Virus record (IMG/VR): IMGVR_UViG_2778261179_000018
Location: 1-24,494 of that record
Length of the DNA: 24,494 bases
From: a virus
Lineage: Duplodnaviria > Heunggongvirae > Uroviricota > Caudoviricetes
Reading direction: 5' to 3' (one strand)
Below the pieces are notes generated by a model, which worked only from the letters and a program-made list of their open reading frames with translations, searched no databases and was not told the origin of the DNA. Of the stretch, positions 6,172 to 21,384 are shown piece after piece (positions within the stretch are counted from its first letter, which is position 1; each line of letters opens with the position of its first letter). A program made the position numbers and the translations under genes.

Positions 6172-8856
6172 ATGAAGCGTGCAATTGAGCTTATCCACGA
6201 AGTGAAGCGCCGAACTGCCGGAAGCTGGGAAAGTGTGCTGCCGCAGTGCGGGGTGACGGTTCCGCCGAAAGGTCGTCACGGACCCTGCGCCATCTGCGGC
6301 GGTTCTGACCGCTTTCACTTTATTGACGACCACGGCGGCGGCGAGTGGCATTGTCGCCAGTGTGACGAACCGAATCATGGCGACGGTCTGGATCTCATCG
6401 CCAGAGCGCACGGTATTACCATAACCGCAGCGGCGCAGAAGGTGGCCTCTGTGTTGGGTGTAGATGCCCGGACACCGGAACCGAAGTCGGCCAGAGAGAA
6501 GCCTCAAACGGATATCGCCGGGAAAGTCGCCGGGATGGCCGCTAAAGCTGCGTCCGGACAGTCAGCCTATCTCACATCAAAGGGGCTTCAGTGCCCCTTC
6601 CCGTTGATGCCTGACGGGTCGCTGCTGATGGTGCTGAAAAACGGCGCTGGCGCTGTCACCGGCGCACAGGGGATTAAGCCAGACGGCAATAAGCGGCTGG
6701 TGGCCGGAACGGTGAAGAAAGGCTCCTTCTGTGTGGTTAATTCCGTTGAATCGCCGGAAAAGGTGGTTATCGCTGAAGGACTGGCAACCACGCTCTCAGT
6801 TAACCTGATGCGGCCCGATGCGCTGGCTGTCGTTGCCGTTGATGCCGGGAACCTGCTGCCCGTAGCGGAGGTTATGCGCCGGCGATACCCTGAGGCGCGG
6901 ATCATTATCGCTGCCGATAACGACATAAAGCCGGGAGAGCCAAACACAGGCAAAGAGGCTGCGGATAAAGCTGCTAAAGCCGTCTCTGGCTGGGTGGCTT
7001 TACCGCCAACAGTGAAAAAGGCCGACTGGAACGACTACCACCAGCAGCATGGCCTGGAAGCCGCTACAACGGCGTTTAAGAATTCGATGTATCAACCGCA
7101 GGAGCCTGAAGTGTCCGCGAGACTGCAAGTGATCAACGGAGGGAAGAAAGGCGCATCAAAACCTGAATCTCTGCGATCTCATGTCGAAAGCCGTGCTGAC
7201 GGTATTTTTTGGGTTGAGCCAAAATCAGACAAAGATACCGGGGAAATAACTACCCGTGAAAGCTGGCTGTGTTCTGCTCTGGAGGTCATAGGTACTGGCA
7301 TAGATGACAGTAAAACCCGGTATCTGATCCTGCGCTGGCGCCCATTCGGTTCGAAGGGGGATACTGTCCAGGCAATACCATTTGCTGATATCGGTGAACG
7401 CGAAGGCTGGCGAACGCTCAAGGCTGGTGGGGTGAACGTCACAACCAAAAGTGGTTTACGTGCAACGTTGGCCGACTGGCTGCAGAGCTGTGCCAATGGT
7501 GAGGTATGGCGCATTGCGCATGCTACGGGCTGGCAGTGTGGCGCCTACATCATGCCTGATGGCGAGATCATTGGTACTCCAGATCAACCGGTGCTGTTTA
7601 ACGGACGAAGTTCTGCCGCATCCGGTTATACCACCAGCGGTACTGTTGAGAGCTGGCGAGAGTGCGTTGGACGTCTGGCCTTTGGCAACTACTCGATGAT
7701 GACTGGCGTGGCCGCAGCGCTGGCAGCTCCTTTGATTGGCCTTGCCGGCGCTGATGGTTTTGGTATCCATCTCTATGAGCAGTCGAGCGCGGGTAAGACC
7801 ACCACTGCCAATGTGGCCTCCAGTCTCTATGGCAATCCGGATGTGCTACGCCTCACCTGGTACGGTACTGCGCTGGGGCTGGCGAACGAAGCCGCCGCAC
7901 ATAACGATGCGCTGATGCCGCTTGACGAAATTGGCCAGGGTGCTGACCCGGTGGAGGTCTACAAATCGGCATACGCACTGTTTAACGGCACGGGTAAGCT
8001 GCAGGGAGCGAAGGAAGGCGGAAACCGTGACCTGAAGCGCTGGCGTACTGTGGCCATCAGTACCGGTGAGATGGATCTGGAAACCTTCATCGCGAGCGCC
8101 GGTCGCAAGGCTAAAGCAGGCCAGCTGGTTCGCCTGCTGAATATCCCGATGCGCCGGGCTGTTCGTTTCCATGAACATGCCAACGGCAAACACCATGCCG
8201 ATGCCCTCAAAGATGCATACCAGCATCACCACGGAGTGGCTGGGCGTGAGTGGGTGAAGTGGCTGGCGGACCACCAGCACGAGGCTGTAAGCGCTGTCAG
8301 GGCAGCGGAAGAGCGCTGGCGTAGCCTGATCCCGTCGGATTACGGGGAGCAGGTCCATCGTGTTGGCGCCCGGTTTGCCATTCTGGAGGCCGCACTATTG
8401 TTAGGTAATGTGATCACCGGCTGGGATGAGCAGACGTGTCGGGATGCCATTCAGTACAGCTATAACGCCTGGCTGCGCGAGTTTGGTACCGGCAATAAAG
8501 AACACCAGCAAATTATCGAGCAGACAGAGGCATTCCTGAACGCCTACGGGATGAGCCGTTTTGCACCGTTCCCATATGACCCGACTAGCCTCCCTATCTC
8601 CAACATGGCGGGATACCGGCAGAAAGGCGGGCACGAGACTGACCCGATAGTGTTCTACACCTTCCCGGCAGCCTTCGAAGGGGAGATCGCCCGCGGCTTT
8701 AACTCCCGTCAGTTTGCGGAGGTATTGAAGAAAGCTGGCATGCTGACGCCACCGACTTCAGGCCGGGGATTCCAGAGAAAGTCGCCACGCATTGATGGGC
8801 GACAGATTCGGGTTTATGTCCTGCAGTATCTGCCGGACGACGACCAGCCAGAGTAA
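6172..8856 (+). CDS. Primase-helicase (zinc-binding domain + Toprim + P-loop NTPase; P4 alpha / DUF927-type)
   Basis: Start at MKRAIELIHEV (track ORF begins earlier at 5947 but overlaps the upstream gene). Zinc finger CAICGGSDRFHF...HCRQCD; Toprim acidic motifs VVIAEGLATT and IIIAADNDIKPGE; P-loop-like YEQSSAGKTTT; about 894 aa. Confidence 0.85.
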   Translation: MKRAIELIHEVKRRTAGSWESVLPQCGVTVPPKGRHGPCAICGGSDRFHFIDDHGGGEWHCRQCDEPNHGDGLDLIARAHGITITAAAQKVASVLGVDARTPEPKSAREKPQTDIAGKVAGMAAKAASGQSAYLTSKGLQCPFPLMPDGSLLMVLKNGAGAVTGAQGIKPDGNKRLVAGTVKKGSFCVVNSVESPEKVVIAEGLATTLSVNLMRPDALAVVAVDAGNLLPVAEVMRRRYPEARIIIAADNDIKPGEPNTGKEAADKAAKAVSGWVALPPTVKKADWNDYHQQHGLEAATTAFKNSMYQPQEPEVSARLQVINGGKKGASKPESLRSHVESRADGIFWVEPKSDKDTGEITTRESWLCSALEVIGTGIDDSKTRYLILRWRPFGSKGDTVQAIPFADIGEREGWRTLKAGGVNVTTKSGLRATLADWLQSCANGEVWRIAHATGWQCGAYIMPDGEIIGTPDQPVLFNGRSSAASGYTTSGTVESWRECVGRLAFGNYSMMTGVAAALAAPLIGLAGADGFGIHLYEQSSAGKTTTANVASSLYGNPDVLRLTWYGTALGLANEAAAHNDALMPLDEIGQGADPVEVYKSAYALFNGTGKLQGAKEGGNRDLKRWRTVAISTGEMDLETFIASAGRKAKAGQLVRLLNIPMRRAVRFHEHANGKHHADALKDAYQHHHGVAGREWVKWLADHQHEAVSAVRAAEERWRSLIPSDYGEQVHRVGARFAILEAALLLGNVITGWDEQTCRDAIQYSYNAWLREFGTGNKEHQQIIEQTEAFLNAYGMSRFAPFPYDPTSLPISNMAGYRQKGGHETDPIVFYTFPAAFEGEIARGFNSRQFAEVLKKAGMLTPPTSGRGFQRKSPRIDGRQIRVYVLQYLPDDDQPE

Positions 8857-9037: not shown

Positions 9038-9253
9038 ATGACAGCTCAAATTTCAGCATATGGCCGGCTGGTGGCCGACCCACAGACCCGAACAACCGGG
9101 AAAGGAACAACCATGGCTACGGCCCGTCTTGCGGTAGCTCTGCCCTGTAATGTCGCAGAGAACGGAGAGGCTACTTTCTGGCTGGGTGTCATTGCCTTTG
9201 GTAAGCAGGCTGATGCTCTGGCCAAACACCATAAAGCCGTATCACCAGATTAA
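9038..9253 (+). CDS. SSB-like OB-fold protein, apparently 3'-truncated
   Basis: Start at MTAQISAYGRLVADPQTR with RBS GAGAGGA. Pattern GRLVADP..R...G...A.LAVAL ... W.GVIAFGK.A resembles the N-terminal two-thirds of bacterial SSB, but the ORF stops at about 71 aa just before the AT-rich block. Confidence 0.4.
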   Translation: MTAQISAYGRLVADPQTRTTGKGTTMATARLAVALPCNVAENGEATFWLGVIAFGKQADALAKHHKAVSPD

Positions 9254-9536
9254 TTCGCTGTTGTTACGCGGGGAGAGCGTACCTGATGCCTAGACAAGCC
9301 ATCGCCGAATCACCGGGCTGGCATCAACCTACACATGCAACCTGTAAGTACGACTAAAGCCGTAAAATGGTATGGTCGACAATGCGATTTTTTTTGGCGT
9401 GATGTGCTTTACGGCTAGCAAAAAACGATTATTGGTTAACATTATTGTGTTTTATGTTTACATAAAATGGTTTATGATTTACATGTGTTCGAAAGGGATG
9501 ACTCTTTTTGAAGTCATCAATTTTTCCGGAAAAGGT

Positions 9537-10643
9537 ATGAAAGTGTTAGTTGACGATATTGTTGCTCTTATAGAAGCGTCTTTAGATGCAAACTATTCTG
9601 AAGTACGTAGTGTGAGCAATCGAATTGCCAAAGCTATAAGTACCGATAATATGGATGGTGCGAAAAAAATAAAATCTGTTTTACGACGTAAGGGGGTGCC
9701 GTTACGTAGTTCAGGTTACAGCGATAGCCTACCCGTTGATCCAAAGTCAAGAATGCCCTTGGTAGAAGAGCATCAATGGCCTGTCACGCCTCTTTTCTTA
9801 GAGGAGAGCGAACAGGATACCTTTAACACTTTTGTTGAAAGTGTAAAGCAACAAGATAAGCTGATTGCGAATGGACTAGTTGGTAAACTAGGTTTGCTGC
9901 TTTCTGGGCCGCCAGGAACAGGTAAGACATTGATTGCAGGACATATAGCGTCACAACTTAATAGACCACTTTATGTGGTGAGATTAGATTCTGTAATTTC
10001 TTCACTTCTTGGTGATACAGCAAAGAACCTAAGACAGATCTTTGATTTTGTACCGTCAAAAAATGGTGTTTTATTTCTCGACGAAGTTGATGCCGTTGCA
10101 AAAGTAAGAGATGACCGCCATGAAATAGGAGAACTGAAAAGAGTAGTAAATACATTAATTCAAGGTTTAGACTCTCTTGATGATAGTTCTATAGTTATAG
10201 CTGCGACCAATCACTCTGAATTACTTGATCCTGCTATCTGGAGACGTTTTCCTTTTAAAATACGTCTCGATTTCCCTTCCCAGGAATTACGAGAGTTCTT
10301 ATGGAGTCATTTTTTATTCGGTGATAAAGGCCCGATTAAGGAGTTAAAGGCGTTAGGTATTGTTTCAAATGGACTAAGTGGTGCTGATATTGAAACTATA
10401 GCTATTTCGGCGAGGAGACAATCAGTATTATCGAATACACCTTTGAATATTCCTTCTGTATTGTTATCAATTATGGACAGTGAATACAATAATTCAGTGA
10501 TGCCTAACACTAAGGAACCAAGTTTACATACCAAGAAAAGATTGATAAATCTTTTATACGAAGCAAAATCTTTCACACAGACAGAAATTGCCAGCCTATT
10601 AGGTTTGAGTAGGCAGACAATTTCAAGCCATTTAAAGGAGTAA
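9537..10643 (+). CDS. AAA+ ATPase (classic clade) with C-terminal HTH; IetA-like candidate
   Basis: Walker A GPPGTGKT, Walker B VLFLDEVD, sensor-1 AATN, arginine-finger region DPAIWRRF; C-terminal HTH-like TQTEIASLLGLSRQTISSHLKE. Start ambiguous (ATGs at 9483, 9498, 9537); the track start 9372 is rejected. Strongly AT-rich. Confidence 0.8.
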   Translation: MKVLVDDIVALIEASLDANYSEVRSVSNRIAKAISTDNMDGAKKIKSVLRRKGVPLRSSGYSDSLPVDPKSRMPLVEEHQWPVTPLFLEESEQDTFNTFVESVKQQDKLIANGLVGKLGLLLSGPPGTGKTLIAGHIASQLNRPLYVVRLDSVISSLLGDTAKNLRQIFDFVPSKNGVLFLDEVDAVAKVRDDRHEIGELKRVVNTLIQGLDSLDDSSIVIAATNHSELLDPAIWRRFPFKIRLDFPSQELREFLWSHFLFGDKGPIKELKALGIVSNGLSGADIETIAISARRQSVLSNTPLNIPSVLLSIMDSEYNNSVMPNTKEPSLHTKKRLINLLYEAKSFTQTEIASLLGLSRQTISSHLKE

Positions 10644-10647
10644 TGCT

Positions 10648-12876
10648 ATGGCAGATGGTAATAACCGTAAGAAAGTGTTGAACCCTCTACTTTCGTATTT
10701 GGAGGACCCTGCGCCAAAAGCGATTAATGGTGGAGGCAAGAATGCTGACGATATTCAGTGGGCTAGGTTAGATATTCAAAAAGAGACTTTAAGTAAAAGT
10801 CTTAAAAGTATCAGTGAAAACAAATCTATTATAGCTCACGCTGGTAAAATCCATCTGCTAATTAAAATGTTTGATGATTCATTAGCACCTTCATGGACCC
10901 CGACGGATTTATTTGAAACAAATCCTTTTACTAGACTAGTTTCTCCTGCATACAACGGATTTTTAGTTGAAACAAGCAAAGAAAAGATACCTGAAATTAT
11001 CAAGAAGATAAAAACTGCTAGCAATGATAGAATTAAAGTAGATGTGTCACGACTTGAAAGTATAAAGGCATTTGATAGGAGCGCAGTTTTAAGAGGGAAA
11101 AGCTTATCTGACTTTGATTTTAGTAATGATGGAAACCAGTTTAATATTTGGATTTTACCATTTCATGATCCAAATGCGCGCTTTTCGGTTGCTGAGGAGT
11201 TAGAGGATCTTGTTGATGAGGATGTTATTACGTTTGGTGAATCCATTTATGACAATGTTTTTGATGGAGAAAAAAGAACCTCTGGTACTCGTTCCTTCAA
11301 AAGAAAGTTAAAGCAATATCTATCGCATGGACATTTAACATTTACAGCAGTAGTAAAAAATAATAATGACTTCATAAAGTTAATTGGATCCGGAGCTATA
11401 TATAGAATCGAACCGGTTAAGAAGGTGACAACTAGGTCATTGCCTCCTGGTGAAGGAGAAGAGCCTTCACCAAAACTGATTAATAAAGAAACCGCTCCCG
11501 TTGTAGTTATAGTTGATGGTGGTTGTTCATCGAAGTCTTACTTGCCATTGAATGTGATTAACATTAATCCGCTTATTGATAGCTATCATGCAGATTTAAA
11601 ACATGGCAATTGCGTAACTTCATTGGTTTGCCAGGGCGGAGCTTGGAATAATAAATTACACTTACCACAATTAGAGTGTAAATTTGTTAGCGTACAAGCT
11701 ATAAGTAAGAGAGATGTAAGCCCTCAACCAACCACCGAGCAGTTCATTAATTATCTAAGAGTTGTGGCGGAGAAAACTAAAAATGTTTCTTCTGTTTGGA
11801 ATCTATCATTTAATGAGGCTTCGCCATCCGATAGTGTTGATGAAATTAGTAGGTTGGGACATGAAATAAGTCTTCTGGCTCGCGAATTTAATATATTACC
11901 CGTGATTTCAATTGGTAATGTTAACTCTGACAACCCAACTACCTTATGTCCTCCTGCTGATTGTGAAGCGGCATTGACTGTATCAGGTAGAAAAGCATCT
12001 ATTTTAGGTGAGATCTCTTCACATTGTCCAAAAAGTTTGCGTGGACCTGCTCCTGGTGGAATGAAGAAGCCTGAGCTTTCTTGGTTTTCTAAATTGAGGA
12101 TGTTAGGTGGAGATGTTAAGACAGGTACAAGCTTTAGTGCGCCCTTGATATCAAGCATTGCGGCTCACACGTTCAAAAATCTAAAAGAGCCAACTCCAGA
12201 TTTAGTTAAGGCATTACTGATAAACAAAGCTGAAGGTATTGAGCATGATCTTGGCCTAGGTTGGGGGTCTCCATGGAGGAAAGGGAGTTCTATGCCATGG
12301 ATGTGTGAAGATGGAACTGTGACATTAGCTTGGAATTCTAAATTAAAAGCTGGTAGTGCATATTATTGGAATAATATTCCTATCCCTCCTGAAATGATTG
12401 TAGATGGAAAGATTAAAGGTAGTATTATTCTTACTGCCATCTTAAAGCCAGTAGTTTCTGAATTAGCAGGGGATAACTATTTTTCAACAAGATTACAATG
12501 TGCACTACAGCATGTAAATAATGCAGGCAAGGCCAAAAATCTTCTTGGTACTATGAAAGAGTCAACCGAAAAGGAAATTGATTCCAGAAGTGAATTAGCT
12601 AAATGGAGCCCGATTAGACATCATGGTAAAAGCTTTAAAGGGGTTGCCGTTGATAATAACAAAGTAAGGCTTTATGCGCGTATTTTTACAAGAGATCTTT
12701 TCCAATTTAATTATGCGAGTCATCATGAGTTAGATGAACAAGATGTGGCATTTGTTTTGACCTTTAAAAGTCCTAGCGACGATCCATCAATTTACGACTC
12801 AATGAAGCAACAACTTGGTAACAAGGTCAAAGCTGCGATAATAGAACAGGATATTATTCTGGATAGTGATGTTTGA
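10648..12876 (+). CDS. S8 family subtilisin-like serine peptidase; IetS-like candidate
   Basis: 742 aa; RBS AAGGAG 8 nt upstream; 4-bp gap after the ATPase gene. Candidate catalytic motifs in subtilase order: Asp VVVIVDGGCS, His HGNCVTSLV, Ser GTSFSAPLISSIAAH. AT-rich like its partner. Confidence 0.8.
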   Translation: MADGNNRKKVLNPLLSYLEDPAPKAINGGGKNADDIQWARLDIQKETLSKSLKSISENKSIIAHAGKIHLLIKMFDDSLAPSWTPTDLFETNPFTRLVSPAYNGFLVETSKEKIPEIIKKIKTASNDRIKVDVSRLESIKAFDRSAVLRGKSLSDFDFSNDGNQFNIWILPFHDPNARFSVAEELEDLVDEDVITFGESIYDNVFDGEKRTSGTRSFKRKLKQYLSHGHLTFTAVVKNNNDFIKLIGSGAIYRIEPVKKVTTRSLPPGEGEEPSPKLINKETAPVVVIVDGGCSSKSYLPLNVININPLIDSYHADLKHGNCVTSLVCQGGAWNNKLHLPQLECKFVSVQAISKRDVSPQPTTEQFINYLRVVAEKTKNVSSVWNLSFNEASPSDSVDEISRLGHEISLLAREFNILPVISIGNVNSDNPTTLCPPADCEAALTVSGRKASILGEISSHCPKSLRGPAPGGMKKPELSWFSKLRMLGGDVKTGTSFSAPLISSIAAHTFKNLKEPTPDLVKALLINKAEGIEHDLGLGWGSPWRKGSSMPWMCEDGTVTLAWNSKLKAGSAYYWNNIPIPPEMIVDGKIKGSIILTAILKPVVSELAGDNYFSTRLQCALQHVNNAGKAKNLLGTMKESTEKEIDSRSELAKWSPIRHHGKSFKGVAVDNNKVRLYARIFTRDLFQFNYASHHELDEQDVAFVLTFKSPSDDPSIYDSMKQQLGNKVKAAIIEQDIILDSDV

Positions 12877-12918
12877 CTTTGCTTATACATAATAACTTTT
12901 TCAAATACAGCTTAACTT

Positions 12919-12945
12919 AAACCCGTTTCGGCGGGTTTTCTTTTT
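12919..12945 (+). terminator. Rho-independent terminator ending the ATPase/subtilase operon
   Basis: AAACCCG-tttcgg-CGGGTTT hairpin followed by TCTTTTT, about 45 bp after the subtilase stop. Confidence 0.65.
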
Positions 12946-13352
12946 GCAGCTATTTATCAATGAGTTCTGTCTGGTTGGCAAACTTGTTGTTAATGAATCT
13001 CTCTGCAGGAGTGGCATTCTTTACGAAGTGCAGGGTGCTGGGCGTTGCCCTCGTCATTCTGTTCATGCTGGTGGCCATCGCTACGTGGCAGTTTGCGCAT
13101 TACATGTAGAATCATACCGCCCATGAAAATGCCTATATCTTATTTATAGGCAGAAACGGTGTGTTCTGGCTATGTATAGGCACAGGTACCGTGTTTTTCC
13201 TATGAGCTTTACCTACCCTCCATTTTGTTCACTAATCAATCAATTCCCTTTCTGGTAACGATCGAATTTACTCTTTCATATTTTGCAATATAAGTGATGA
13301 TCATTTCACTTAATGCAATTATAATTACTGTATAAATATCAGGGGGTGGCAT

Positions 13353-19154: not shown

Positions 19155-19613
19155 ATGGCAGTTACAACCCTAAATAGCGTGGCGGACTATCTGCTGTGCT
19201 TTGCTCAGGAGCACGGGGATGTTATGACGCCGCTGAAACTGCAAAAAATGGTGTTTTACGCTGATGCCTGGTATATGGCTCTGAACGATGGCGAAGAGTT
19301 GATTGCTGATCGGTTTGAGGCGTGGGTACACGGCCCGGTAGCGAGAGATTTGTATATCAGGTTCGCCGATTACAAATGGCAGCCGATCACCCGTGAAATA
19401 CCATGCCCGGATCTCCCTAAGGGTGTTTCTGAACATCTGGACGAAATTTATAATGTATTCGGCGGATTCTCGGCTTATGAGCTGGAGCAGATGACGCATC
19501 AGGAAAAACCCTGGCTGATAGCTCGCGGTGATATTCCATCAGATGCGCCTTGCCGGAATGACATCGACAAAGGCGTAACCGCTGAATTCTACCGCGGCAT
19601 GATGGATGCCTGA
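19155..19613 (+). CDS. Panacea-domain (DUF4065, SocA/GepA-like) protein; putative antitoxin
   Basis: 152 aa; RBS AGGAGA 8 nt upstream; hallmark LKLQKMVFYADAW ... GPV ... Y of the DUF4065 family. Confidence 0.75.
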   Translation: MAVTTLNSVADYLLCFAQEHGDVMTPLKLQKMVFYADAWYMALNDGEELIADRFEAWVHGPVARDLYIRFADYKWQPITREIPCPDLPKGVSEHLDEIYNVFGGFSAYELEQMTHQEKPWLIARGDIPSDAPCRNDIDKGVTAEFYRGMMDA

Positions 19614-19615
19614 AC

Positions 19616-20053
19616 GTGGGCAAAGGGAAAATCAAGGCAAGCAAGATACCGGCAGCGGGTAATCAAATCGTTGCCGGAACGCCCATCCCCACCACTACAA
19701 CCCTCAGTTTCTCTTTCCAGTACATTGATCCCGCACATGCTAAGTTCGGTTTTGCGGGACAGGCGACTGCTTACTTTTGCAAGGTGCTGGAGCGTCTTAA
19801 AGATATATCAACTCTGACGCCGCTTGAGTTTACGACAAACCGAAATGCGGCTCTCAAATCGCACTGTATCGAGTGGAAAACAACCTCCGAGCCTGACGGC
19901 TTTACTCACCTCAACGAGCAGTTCCAGAGCTATACGCCTTATCAGTTTGCCATATCTCGCAATGAGCACGGCCGCATACACGGCTTTTTCATTGGCAATG
20001 TGTTCTACGTCGTATGGCTTGACCCCAACCACCAGCTCTACCCCGGCGAATAG
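19616..20053 (+). CDS. Hypothetical protein, candidate toxin partner of the Panacea-domain protein
   Basis: 145 aa; GTG start 2 bp after the upstream stop (operon arrangement); no recognisable domain. Confidence 0.5.
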   Translation: MGKGKIKASKIPAAGNQIVAGTPIPTTTTLSFSFQYIDPAHAKFGFAGQATAYFCKVLERLKDISTLTPLEFTTNRNAALKSHCIEWKTTSEPDGFTHLNEQFQSYTPYQFAISRNEHGRIHGFFIGNVFYVVWLDPNHQLYPGE

Positions 20054-20158: not shown

Positions 20159-20563
20159 ATGTTTAAGGAGTGTCCTGTGCAAAGAATCGAAGTGATCACT
20201 GGCGAGCAAAAGCGCCGCCGTTATACTCCCGAAGAGAAAGCCCGTTTTGTAGCGCTCGCCATGCAGCCCGGCTACACCGTCTCACTCGTTGCCCGGCAAT
20301 ATGGCATCACTCCCAGTCTTCTTTTTAAGTGGAAACGACTCATGAACGAGGGTGGCAAGTCTGCGATCGCCGCAGGCGACGAGGTGGTCAGCGTCTCCGA
20401 GCTCAAAGCGCTGGAGAAAAAAGTCAAACAGCTTGAACAGATGCTGGGACGCAAAACGATGGAAGCCGAAATCCTTCGCGACGCGCTTGAGATAGCCCAG
20501 GCAAAAAAGTTGATATCGCGCATGCCATTGCTGCCACCGGACGATATCCCCTCATCCGAATAG
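20159..20563 (+). CDS. IS3-family transposase OrfA (HTH DNA-binding subunit)
   Basis: EQKRRRYTPEEKARFV...GYTVSLVARQYGITPSLLFKWKR and a leucine-zipper-like C-terminus; slippery AAAAAAG at 20503-20509 for a programmed -1 frameshift. Confidence 0.85.
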   Translation: MFKECPVQRIEVITGEQKRRRYTPEEKARFVALAMQPGYTVSLVARQYGITPSLLFKWKRLMNEGGKSAIAAGDEVVSVSELKALEKKVKQLEQMLGRKTMEAEILRDALEIAQAKKLISRMPLLPPDDIPSSE

Positions 20564-20568
20564 CAGAA

Positions 20569-21384
20569 GTGCTCTGTGTATCGCGTTCGAATCTGTATGA
20601 CCGGTTACTGGATAAAAGCCAGCACCGGTCAGCCCGCTACAGCAAAGACGATGACGCCCGACTGTTACCGCTTATCCGCCAGATATGCAGCGAGCGGGCA
20701 ACAAACGGCTATCGTCGCGTGACTGCGCACCTCAATCGTGCGCTGAAGGAACATAACTGGCGAGTTAACCCCAAACGTATTTATCGGATCATGCAGGCGA
20801 ATAACCTGTTACTGGCAAAATCTGGCCATAAAAAGCCAGAACGCTGCCATACCGGCAGCGTCGTGACACTTAAGTCGGATACGCGCTGGTGCTCAGATGG
20901 CTTCGAAATCCGCTGCTGGAATCGGGAAGTCGTGCGGGTGGTGTTCAGCCTTGACTGCTGTGATCGTGAAGCCATCAGTTGGTCGGCCACAGCAGGCGGT
21001 ATAAACAGCGTTATGGTGCAGGATCTGCTGACAGAGAGTGTAGAAAAGCGCTTTGGAAATACGCTTTACCTGCCACACGCCGTTGAGTGGCTGACCGATA
21101 ACGGCAGTTGCTACGTAGCGGACGCGACAAGGACGTTCGCTGCTTCACTCGGGTTCATCGTGTGTACGACGCCAGTGCGTAGCCCGGAGAGCAATGGGAT
21201 GGCTGAATCGTTCGTGAAAACGTTCAAGCGTGACTACGTGTATGTGAATGACCTGCCGGATGCGGTGACCGTAATGGAAAAACTGACAGAATGGATGGAA
21301 GACTATAATAACTGGCATCCCCATAAAGGACTGAAAATGCAGTCACCGAGAGAATACAGAAGCTCATTACTAGCTATAAATTAA
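20569..21384 (+). CDS. IS3-family transposase OrfB (DDE catalytic domain); probably expressed as an OrfAB fusion
   Basis: ORF-track coordinates; the reading frame stays open upstream to the slippery site in the -1 frame; integrase-core-like block WLTDNGSCYVA and conserved C-terminal region. Confidence 0.8.
   Translation: MLCVSRSNLYDRLLDKSQHRSARYSKDDDARLLPLIRQICSERATNGYRRVTAHLNRALKEHNWRVNPKRIYRIMQANNLLLAKSGHKKPERCHTGSVVTLKSDTRWCSDGFEIRCWNREVVRVVFSLDCCDREAISWSATAGGINSVMVQDLLTESVEKRFGNTLYLPHAVEWLTDNGSCYVADATRTFAASLGFIVCTTPVRSPESNGMAESFVKTFKRDYVYVNDLPDAVTVMEKLTEWMEDYNNWHPHKGLKMQSPREYRSSLLAIN

Follow-up and report, generated by a model that had tools for sequence, protein, structure and literature searches.

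The viral sequence IMGVR_UViG_2778261179_000018 (Caudoviricetes), analysed over its full 24,494 nucleotides (nt) and called the window below, is a Klebsiella integrative, phage-related element that carries an intact IetAS module in its cargo slot. The AAA+ ATPase IetA and the S8 subtilase IetS form an already known toxin–antitoxin (TA) and phage-defence family, and by analogy with studied homologues we consider it likely, at a probability of roughly 0.7, that this pair works as a self-contained, two-gene TA or abortive-infection defence cassette. New here are the bounds of that cassette (9400–12939), a helix-turn-helix (HTH) domain at the end of IetA and a set of hexamers, phased at 21 nt, upstream of ietA. 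The main parts of the locus are as follows.

9400–12939, + strand: mobile cassette of ~3.5 kb (promoter/repeats, ietA, ietS and terminator)
9497–9518, + strand: leader hairpin (inverted repeat I3) with a 7-bp GATGACT/AGTCATC stem and an 8-nt loop, directly before the ietA ribosome-binding site
9537–10643, + strand: ietA, 368 amino acids (aa), ATG start, TAA stop at 10641–10643
10648–12876, + strand: ietS, 742 aa, ATG at 10648
12919–12948, + strand: intrinsic terminator, with a hairpin at 12919–12938 (8-bp G+C-rich stem, 4-nt loop) followed by a T run

The ietAS locus and its products

The two genes are co-oriented on the + strand and separated by only 4 nt (TGCT), as a first-pass annotation made from the sequence had described, and the open reading frames (ORFs) agree with the stop and start coordinates. 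A Shine–Dalgarno sequence, AAGGAG, precedes the ietS ATG and overlaps the 3′ end of ietA; this overlap and the short gap suggest that the genes are probably translationally coupled. Whereas the ietS ORF occupies 10648–12876, the full upstream ORF extends over 9372–10643 on the same strand, and some public gene calls of 413–420 aa use this longer start. We take the ATG at 9537 as the likely start of ietA because the resulting 368 aa match the length of most homologues; the extension from 9372 crosses the promoter region and is probably an artefact. The AT-richness remarked on in the first pass is borne out by a G+C content of 0.377 over 9537–12876 versus 0.528 in the left flank and 0.513 in the right, and the terminator proposed behind the pair stands up to folding, with an energy of −12.8 kcal/mol (z = −3.1) and an equally good fold in 2 of 200 shuffles. 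The stem of the leader hairpin is preserved through G–U wobble changes in an 85%-identical copy (contig L044, judged by eye) and could act as an attenuator or other RNA-level control.

Both products carry every sequence-level hallmark of the PADLOC IetAS family: adjacency, profile matches, ATPase motifs, and a catalytic triad with its oxyanion Asn. IetA matches Pfam AAA (PF00004; E = 2.7e-30) and the PADLOC IetA profile PDLC02196 (2.1e-105, over residues 6–367 of 368). IetS matches Peptidase_S8 (PF00082; 7.6e-15) and the PADLOC IetS profile PDLC02197 (5e-70), with PDLC02200 covering its C-terminal part (9.5e-37). These profile searches, and the A-then-S order in relatives with a complete IetS, back the assignment to ietAS that the first pass had made. 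The second-best PADLOC family for IetA is TRIP13 (1.3e-15). In HORMA-containing CBASS (cyclic-oligonucleotide-based anti-phage signalling system), TRIP13/Pch2 is likewise an AAA+ remodeller that holds an immune effector pathway off until infection; its partner, however, is a HORMA/cyclase rather than a protease, and the IetA profiles match our protein about 90 orders of magnitude better. The features of IetA are given below by residue and window position.

Residues 5–50: three-helix bundle in the AlphaFold2 (AF2) model
Residues 52–61 (9690–9719, + strand): loop KGVPLRSSGY, invariant, disordered in the model
Residues 124–131 (9906–9929, + strand): Walker A, GPPGTGKT, with K130
9999–10016, + strand: pore loop 1, SSLLGD
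Residues 179–185 (10071–10091, + strand): Walker B, LFLDEVD, with D182 and E183
Residues 222–225 (10200–10211, + strand): sensor 1, AATN, with N225
Residues 235–238 (10239–10250, + strand): Arg fingers, WRRF, with R236 and R237
Residues 330–368 (10524–10640, + strand): C-terminal HTH, from Pfam and the model

IetA belongs to the classical-clade AAA+ protein remodellers of the hexamer type; its ATPase motifs are intact and its pore loop is hydrophobic. The four motifs named at first pass were all located, and K130, D182–E183, N225, R236–R237 and the pore segment S155-S156-x-L158-G159 are invariant in 48 sequences. Among AAA+ families it matches PF00004 and the p97/FtsH/PAN group best; the Foldseek neighbours of its model (predicted local distance difference test (pLDDT) 81) are p97, FtsH, PAN, Rpt, Vps4 and spastin, and the same set recurs among sequence neighbours in the PDB. 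Distant IetA clades have Tyr/Phe-Leu-Gly in pore loop 1, where our protein has Leu-Leu-Gly. In the model, the AAA+ core and lid lie between the loop at 52–61 and the terminal helices. The latter, at 330–342, 348–355 and 359–367, match HTH_Mga (6.9e-6) and HTH_24 (2.2e-5), both above gathering scores, and the recognition helix, SRQTISSHLKE, forms the very C-terminal end of the protein. An HTH-like C-terminal segment is also present, by eye and from sequence, in every distant-clade IetA examined.

IetS, a cytoplasmic subtilase, has all three residues of the Asp-His-Ser triad as well as the oxyanion Asn and is laid out as follows.

Residues 1–260 (10648–11427, + strand): family-specific N-terminal region
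Residues 261–284 (11428–11499, + strand): linker with PPGxGxEP, conserved and disordered
Residues 285–545 (11500–12282, + strand): subtilase core
Residues 288–294 (11509–11529, + strand): Asp motif, IVDGGCS, with D290
Residues 319–325 (11602–11622, + strand): His motif, HGNCVTS, with H319
11908–11919, + strand: oxyanion Asn, N424
Residues 493–499 (12124–12144, + strand): Ser motif, GTSFSAP, with S495
Residues ~555–710 (12310–12777, + strand): beta-sandwich

The Asp, His and Ser motifs occur in the order reported at first pass, and alignment, which could have undone the assignment, instead reinforces it: D290-G291-G292, H319-G320-N321, G423-N424 and G493/S495 are invariant in 40 close relatives, and D290, H319, N424 and S495 are invariant across 84, down to 19–23% identity. 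The first pass had correctly read DGG in the Asp motif and regarded it as a departure from the usual DTG/DSG; the reading stands and the departure does not, as DGG is invariant in the clade and position 291 is G in 67 of the 84 relatives, S in 15 and T in 2. DGG is thus the normal form of DSG/DTG in this clade and no sign of decay. The IetS model is confident (pLDDT 91; predicted template modelling score (pTM) 0.91, as a monomer), although its N-terminal ~260 residues have no credible solved structural relative and, despite the conserved PPGxGxEP motif, the linker falls below a pLDDT of 50 at residues 265–269. Speculatively, this linker and the IetA loop at 52–61, both disordered yet conserved in the clade, are candidates for an IetA–IetS contact or for a processing or cleavage site. 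Signal peptides and membrane segments are absent from both proteins, and a search of the PDB returned no IetA or IetS structure.

The IetAS family comprises several clades, and the NCBI names IteA and IteS cover only one of them, with our pair in a sister clade. Although the IteA (NF042959) and IteS (NF042956) equivalogs are its best NCBIfam matches, the scores of 313.5 bits against a cut-off of 510 and 185.8 against 900 fall short, whereas control pairs from an Acidovorax plasmid and the E. coli phage vB_EcoS-683R6 reach 570 bits (IteA) and 1038–1058 bits (IteS). The E. coli relative P0053 and the pair of plasmid pRi1724 score ~300 and ~180 bits, as ours does, and the sub-threshold scores are explained by membership in this other clade, which includes the pRi1724 pair. 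As the clade fails the equivalog cut-offs, an anti-phage role for this copy is transferred from other clades. The anti-phage 'ietAS' type behind NF042959/NF042956 is reportedly that of Gao et al. 2020. Those NCBI-type pairs (Acidovorax p1-T1 and phage vB_EcoS-683R6) share with ours the architecture, triad and AAA+ motifs, but only 38% identity in IetA and 26–28% in the catalytic part of IetS.

We compared the locus with 21 viral contigs and 35 loci from reference genomes. Across this set, each complete IetS is immediately preceded by IetA; the two genes are −23 to +5 nt apart except in L011, L016 and L063, three copies that are degraded or have a disrupted N-terminus. The first pass had named a home in conserved housekeeping loci as evidence that would count against a defence role; instead, homologous pairs sit in variable, mobile or defence-rich contexts. 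Around 18 complete reference-genome loci, 139 neighbour proteins represent 147 Pfam families, no housekeeping gene recurs as a conserved neighbour, and at least 6 of the 18 have defence genes near the pair (Gabija GajA in two, CBASS-type E1–E2/JAB genes in four). Relatives occur on viral contigs, in lambdoid prophages, on conjugative Ri-type plasmids and in defence-gene neighbourhoods, and in most gammaproteobacterial loci the G+C content of the pair lies below that of its flanks (in Pseudomonas, 0.44–0.46 versus 0.54–0.62). In three alphaproteobacterial loci (L018, L020 and L023), E1–E2 (ThiF/Prok-E2) and JAB genes stand directly upstream on the opposite strand (~6470–8270), and in Acidovorax a Shedu gene lies directly downstream of ietAS (L077, 5552–6661).

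The closest relatives of the pair define the mobile unit. Four lambdoid-prophage contigs match at 85% DNA identity, three over 9400–12939 (L044, L045 and L052) and one from 9415 (L049), and match nothing else in the window. Because only this segment is shared, 9400–12939 is the unit that moves; its homology ends on the right at the terminator, and in the lambdoid prophages it is inserted between O/P-like replication genes and the Q antiterminator.

Copies of ietS are split, truncated or interrupted in L011, L016, L032, L035, L039, L041 and L063, and an IS256 element interrupts the gene in Bradyrhizobium pBb1S5a; this notable share of broken copies in reference genomes suggests that the toxin gene decays frequently. 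That our pair is itself a decaying remnant without current function is hardly credible. Such a fate might be read from the split or truncated IetS elsewhere (L032, L035, L039, L041 and L063) and from mosaic surroundings that include a truncated ssb and a nearby insertion sequence (IS) element, but neither ORF is shortened and each aligns with its homologues over the entire length, the catalytic and ATPase residues are intact, and IetS is 100% identical on nine public contigs, one from a Klebsiella pneumoniae assembly. Six of the nine were retrieved from different assemblies or sequencing runs, and the same element is present in several assemblies; the identical K. pneumoniae protein is the basis for naming the host. 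Complete E. coli genomes and GenBank phages hold no near-identical DNA to 9300–13300.

Phased repeats upstream of ietA

Three direct hexamers, spaced at exactly 21 nt, lie ahead of ietA.

9436–9441, + strand: TTAACA
9457–9462, + strand: TTTACA
9478–9483, + strand: TTTACA

Related loci carry arrays of two to four such hexamers, with the clade consensus wwwwGC-TTGACA-ww. Counting TTGACA-like words (at most one mismatch) on the coding strand upstream of ietA, we found 96 hits in 28 non-identical loci, compared with 21 ± 4.4 in shuffles and 30 on the opposite strand. Of the 68 spacings between neighbouring hits, 38 measure exactly 21 nt and 42 fall within 20–23 nt, where 1000 shuffles gave 0.42 on average and never more than 5. 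Real sequence gives the same answer. In the remaining 1.1 Mb of the same loci, both strands counted, 21-nt pairs occur at 0.0046 per 160 nt, versus 1.50 upstream of ietA (~325-fold), and phased triples number 0 versus 16. At least two copies stand in register in 27 of 29 clade loci and at least three in 12 of 29. A motif-free count of 7-mer direct repeats likewise peaks at a spacing of 21 in the clade (25 events, with no other spacing above 8).

The phase persists in some distant clades, where the word does not. Six distant-clade loci again peak at 21 in the 7-mer count (8 events; other spacings at most 3; shuffles 1.2 ± 1.2), with the words TYGTMTCA three times in L070, GWTATAATT in L072 and CGACAC four times in L073, and the IetA recognition helices of these clades differ, as their words do. 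The NCBI-type loci (L077 and L078), in which IetA also has an HTH-like C-terminus, carry pairs of TGATTCA/TTTTGATTS words 21 nt apart in place of the TTGACA-like word found here. Upstream of the pRi1724 ietA, four TTGACA-like copies 21 nt apart can be made out by eye, of which the count at one mismatch keeps two in register.

These statistics, together with a repeat word that changes in clades whose recognition helices differ, lead us to propose that the array is a putative operator for the IetA HTH, serving autoregulation and possibly overlapping the promoter. Being two helical turns apart, the repeats lie on one face of the DNA. As in type II TA systems, the gene in the antitoxin position, ietA, comes first and encodes a DNA-binding domain. 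Cassette homology begins 36 nt upstream of the first hexamer, and the array travels with the cassette. An 8-bp palindrome at 9450–9467, considered earlier as the operator, was dropped in favour of the direct repeats after comparison with other loci.

AAA+ proteins with a C-terminal HTH that act on phased DNA repeats include DnaA, with its DnaA-box arrays, and the enhancer-binding proteins NtrC and PspF. IetA shares their order of N-terminal domain, AAA+ core and C-terminal HTH, and an IetA oligomer would similarly meet several equally phased sites. Its core, however, is of the classical p97/FtsH/PAN clade, unlike that of enhancer-binding proteins: there is no above-threshold Sigma54_activ match, the only hit to a sigma54 enhancer-binding core being PF14532 at a sub-threshold E of 0.0029, and DNA binding by IetA is a prediction.

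Alternatively, the hexamers might be elements of sigma-70 promoters arranged in tandem or overlapping one another, or might be bound by a host factor; we regard this as on balance unlikely. The word of this clade is the −35 consensus, the 21-nt phasing places the 'GACAWW' of one repeat at the −10 position relative to the previous repeat taken as −35, and the L072 word contains TATAAT. Yet other clades keep the 21-nt phase with words that do not resemble promoters (CGACAC in L073, TYGTMTCA in L070, and the TGATTCA type in L077 and L078) and with different IetA recognition helices; such arrays are essentially absent from the 1.1 Mb of background, in which ordinary promoters abound, and a promoter reading must also accommodate an array that moves along with the cassette. 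Hand assignment of −35 and −10 elements in 9400–9536 gave no convincing promoter. Our literature search found no paper linking IetA with an HTH, autoregulation or promoter repeats, and nothing relevant on cryo-EM of ietAS; the founding papers of 2009 and 2020 were outside that search, and we claim no priority.

Probable mode of action

Studies of homologues supply the outline of a mechanism. In the helicase-associated ietHAS system (Liu-DS4), IetS is the toxin and IetA the antitoxin, protease activity is required for defence, and a plasmid carrying mutated ietA could not be constructed; the anti-phage mechanism, which the first pass had called unresolved, was still termed unknown in April 2026 (PMC13069673). 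That system shares the IetA and IetS cores with ours but includes a SNF2 helicase, IetH, whereas the window has no helicase gene alongside the pair, which is flanked by a truncated ssb and a phage tail module. Defence by ietAS works through abortive infection, and one phage protein on its own can set off the toxicity (bioRxiv 10.1101/2022.08.27.505566); in E. coli, ietAS is often prophage-borne (bioRxiv 10.1101/2022.08.21.504612). An AAA-ATPase/subtilase pair is also a validated TA module in mycoplasmas: in TA132/133, an AAA-ATPase antitoxin is encoded upstream of an S8 protease toxin of ~750 aa, as toxicity–neutralization assays established (PMC8562856). The mycoplasma host is distant, and the likeness to our pair is one of organization rather than of measured sequence identity.

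By extension from these homologues, IetS would be a toxin whose protease activity defence requires, and IetA would hold it harmless in an ATP-dependent manner, in keeping with the need for active IetA to tolerate IetS. Such restraint would probably operate through direct binding or remodelling of IetS. Meanwhile, several HTHs of an IetA oligomer could bind the 21-bp-phased repeats and repress the operon, in the manner of type II antitoxins. On infection, a phage product or its consequence would disable or divert IetA, and the freed IetS would cleave cellular or phage proteins such that growth halts before phage release. A more specific model, which we put forward tentatively and at somewhat under even odds, is that IetA forms a DNA-anchored AAA+ ring, its terminal HTHs seated on the operator array, and serves as both operon repressor and ATP-driven restraint on IetS. 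Loss of IetA would then free the toxin and derepress the operon together. The arrangement would be conserved across IetAS, with repeat word and recognition helix changing in concert between clades.

Several observations weigh against this picture. The scan of 9400–9536 for the sigma-70 promoter consensus found no site at threshold, and no clear 21-nt array is present in three of the six distant-clade loci (L065, L068 and L074). The repeats of this clade could also be bound by RNA polymerase, TTGACA being the −35 consensus. Pore loop 1 has Leu at a position that is aromatic in most unfoldases and in distant IetA clades. Finally, the clade lies below the NCBIfam anti-phage equivalog cut-offs (313 versus 510 and 186 versus 900 bits).

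The last point also bears on whether the pair is mainly an addiction module, stabilizing its carrier by post-segregational killing, with phage defence secondary or absent in this clade. The founding IetAS system is said to be the TA system of Yamamoto et al. 2009, from Agrobacterium/Rhizobium Ti and Ri plasmids, and first described for pTiC58. As pTiC58 was absent among our plasmid matches, comparison with the founder type rests on the pRi1724 pair, which has the same gene order, similar sizes (374 and 752 aa), full-length identities of 53% (IetA) and 43% (IetS), and an IetA with a C-terminal HTH whose recognition helix reads SRQAIYAYLK. It shares the sub-threshold NCBIfam scores of our pair but is plasmid-borne in alphaproteobacteria, where ours sits in a chromosomal, phage-related Klebsiella element. 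The presence of conjugative Ri-type plasmid pairs in the clade, and the first description of IetAS as a plasmid-stability TA system (cited in PMC13069673 and PMC8562856), lend the addiction role some credit. However, many copies reside in prophages and beside other defence genes, and addiction and defence are not exclusive, as abortive-infection TA systems commonly do both. We therefore view addiction as the main role as distinctly unlikely.

A different division of labour would make IetA and IetS a two-component, ATP-dependent protease, in which IetA unfolds proteins, such as those of the phage, and feeds them to IetS for direct degradation without suicide. The nearest relatives of IetA are indeed protease-coupled unfoldases and segregases (PAN, FtsH, Rpt and p97), its pore loop 1 is conserved, and the genes are strictly paired and probably translationally coupled. 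Nevertheless, IetS of homologous systems is toxic when active IetA is missing, and their defence appears to be abortive, which fits restraint rather than delivery; the C-terminus of IetA is an HTH, its recognition helix standing where an HbYX-type peptidase-docking tail would sit, and no such tail is present; and the IetS model resembles an ordinary monomeric multidomain subtilase with no evident chamber, as far as a monomer model can tell. This possibility appears to us a long shot, and restraint of a toxic protease by its ATPase partner remains the preferred account.

The carrier element and the wider family

The surroundings of the cassette are those of an integrative element, with the following features.

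1–1254: integrase
1347–2306: AT-rich ORF of 319 aa, G+C 0.38, with no Pfam, PHROGs or PADLOC match
2401–2604: AlpA
Between AlpA and ietAS: Bro-N/Ant-like gene, then a DUF927–Toprim primase, then the truncated ssb
9039–9253: truncated ssb, 71 codons versus 147 in the E. coli LR-33 element; the product still matches SSB families
9240–13125, no strand assigned: cargo-slot segment swapped relative to the E. coli LR-33 element (L001), whose homology to the window breaks off within ssb at 9239 and picks up again at 13126
Downstream of ietAS: SLT-domain tape-measure-like gene, then Dit-like and other tail-tip genes
After the tail-tip genes: Panacea-domain gene, then an IS3 element, then a DUF2280 gene

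The first pass had placed the pair in an integrase/AlpA/primase island. Those genes are present, but the carrier is more than such an island: tail-type genes follow, and the 3′ half of ssb has been replaced. The E. coli LR-33 element shares this backbone, has a complete ssb and carries other cargo, and comparison of the two sequences identifies the replacement of the 3′ half of ssb by the ietAS-bearing segment as the scar of a cargo exchange. The ORF at 1347–2306, AT-rich like ietAS, could be a second cargo gene. Neither a tRNA nor an att feature was found in the window, and ten other window ORFs had no PADLOC match.

The carrier joins a P4-like module (integrase, AlpA, Bro-N, DUF927–Toprim primase and SSB) directly to the SLT tape-measure-like gene and tail-tip genes (Dit-like, Pam3_gp18-like and Apex-like), with sheath, tube and head genes absent in between, and the same order of P4 module and tail tip is seen in the E. 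coli LR-33 element (L001). It may be a satellite-like element with its own tail-tip genes, or a fused remnant. Just past the ietAS terminator and outside the cassette, a very hydrophobic ORF of ~55 aa (MSSVWLANLLLMNLSAGVAFF...) occupies 12961–13126, and a terminator-like hairpin lies on the opposite strand at 13130–13152. Farther downstream, at 19155–20053, the gene of a 152-aa SocA_Panacea-domain protein lies 2 nt ahead of an ORF of 145 aa without a family match; the two could be a Panacea-type TA pair, and neither protein matches PADLOC. An IS3-family element (an HTH_Tnp_1 ORF and a transposase; 20159–21384) comes directly after them and is missing from the otherwise identical Klebsiella copies L002 and L003.

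On its own, this copy adds little, because the mechanism of IetAS is still unknown, its IetS is already in public Klebsiella assemblies and PADLOC profiles match the pair. Copies like it carry no annotation beyond 'AAA family ATPase' and 'S8 family peptidase', because the NCBI names IteA and IteS cover one clade. What the comparison does provide is, first, a defined mobile unit of 3.5 kb, exchanged among prophages, satellite-like islands and plasmids. Second, the conserved, disordered KGVPLRSSGY of IetA and PPGxGxEP of IetS are obvious candidates for contact or processing. Finally, the occurrence of an IetA HTH across the family, together with a 21-bp-phased promoter array, offers a cheap and direct experimental handle on how these systems are regulated.

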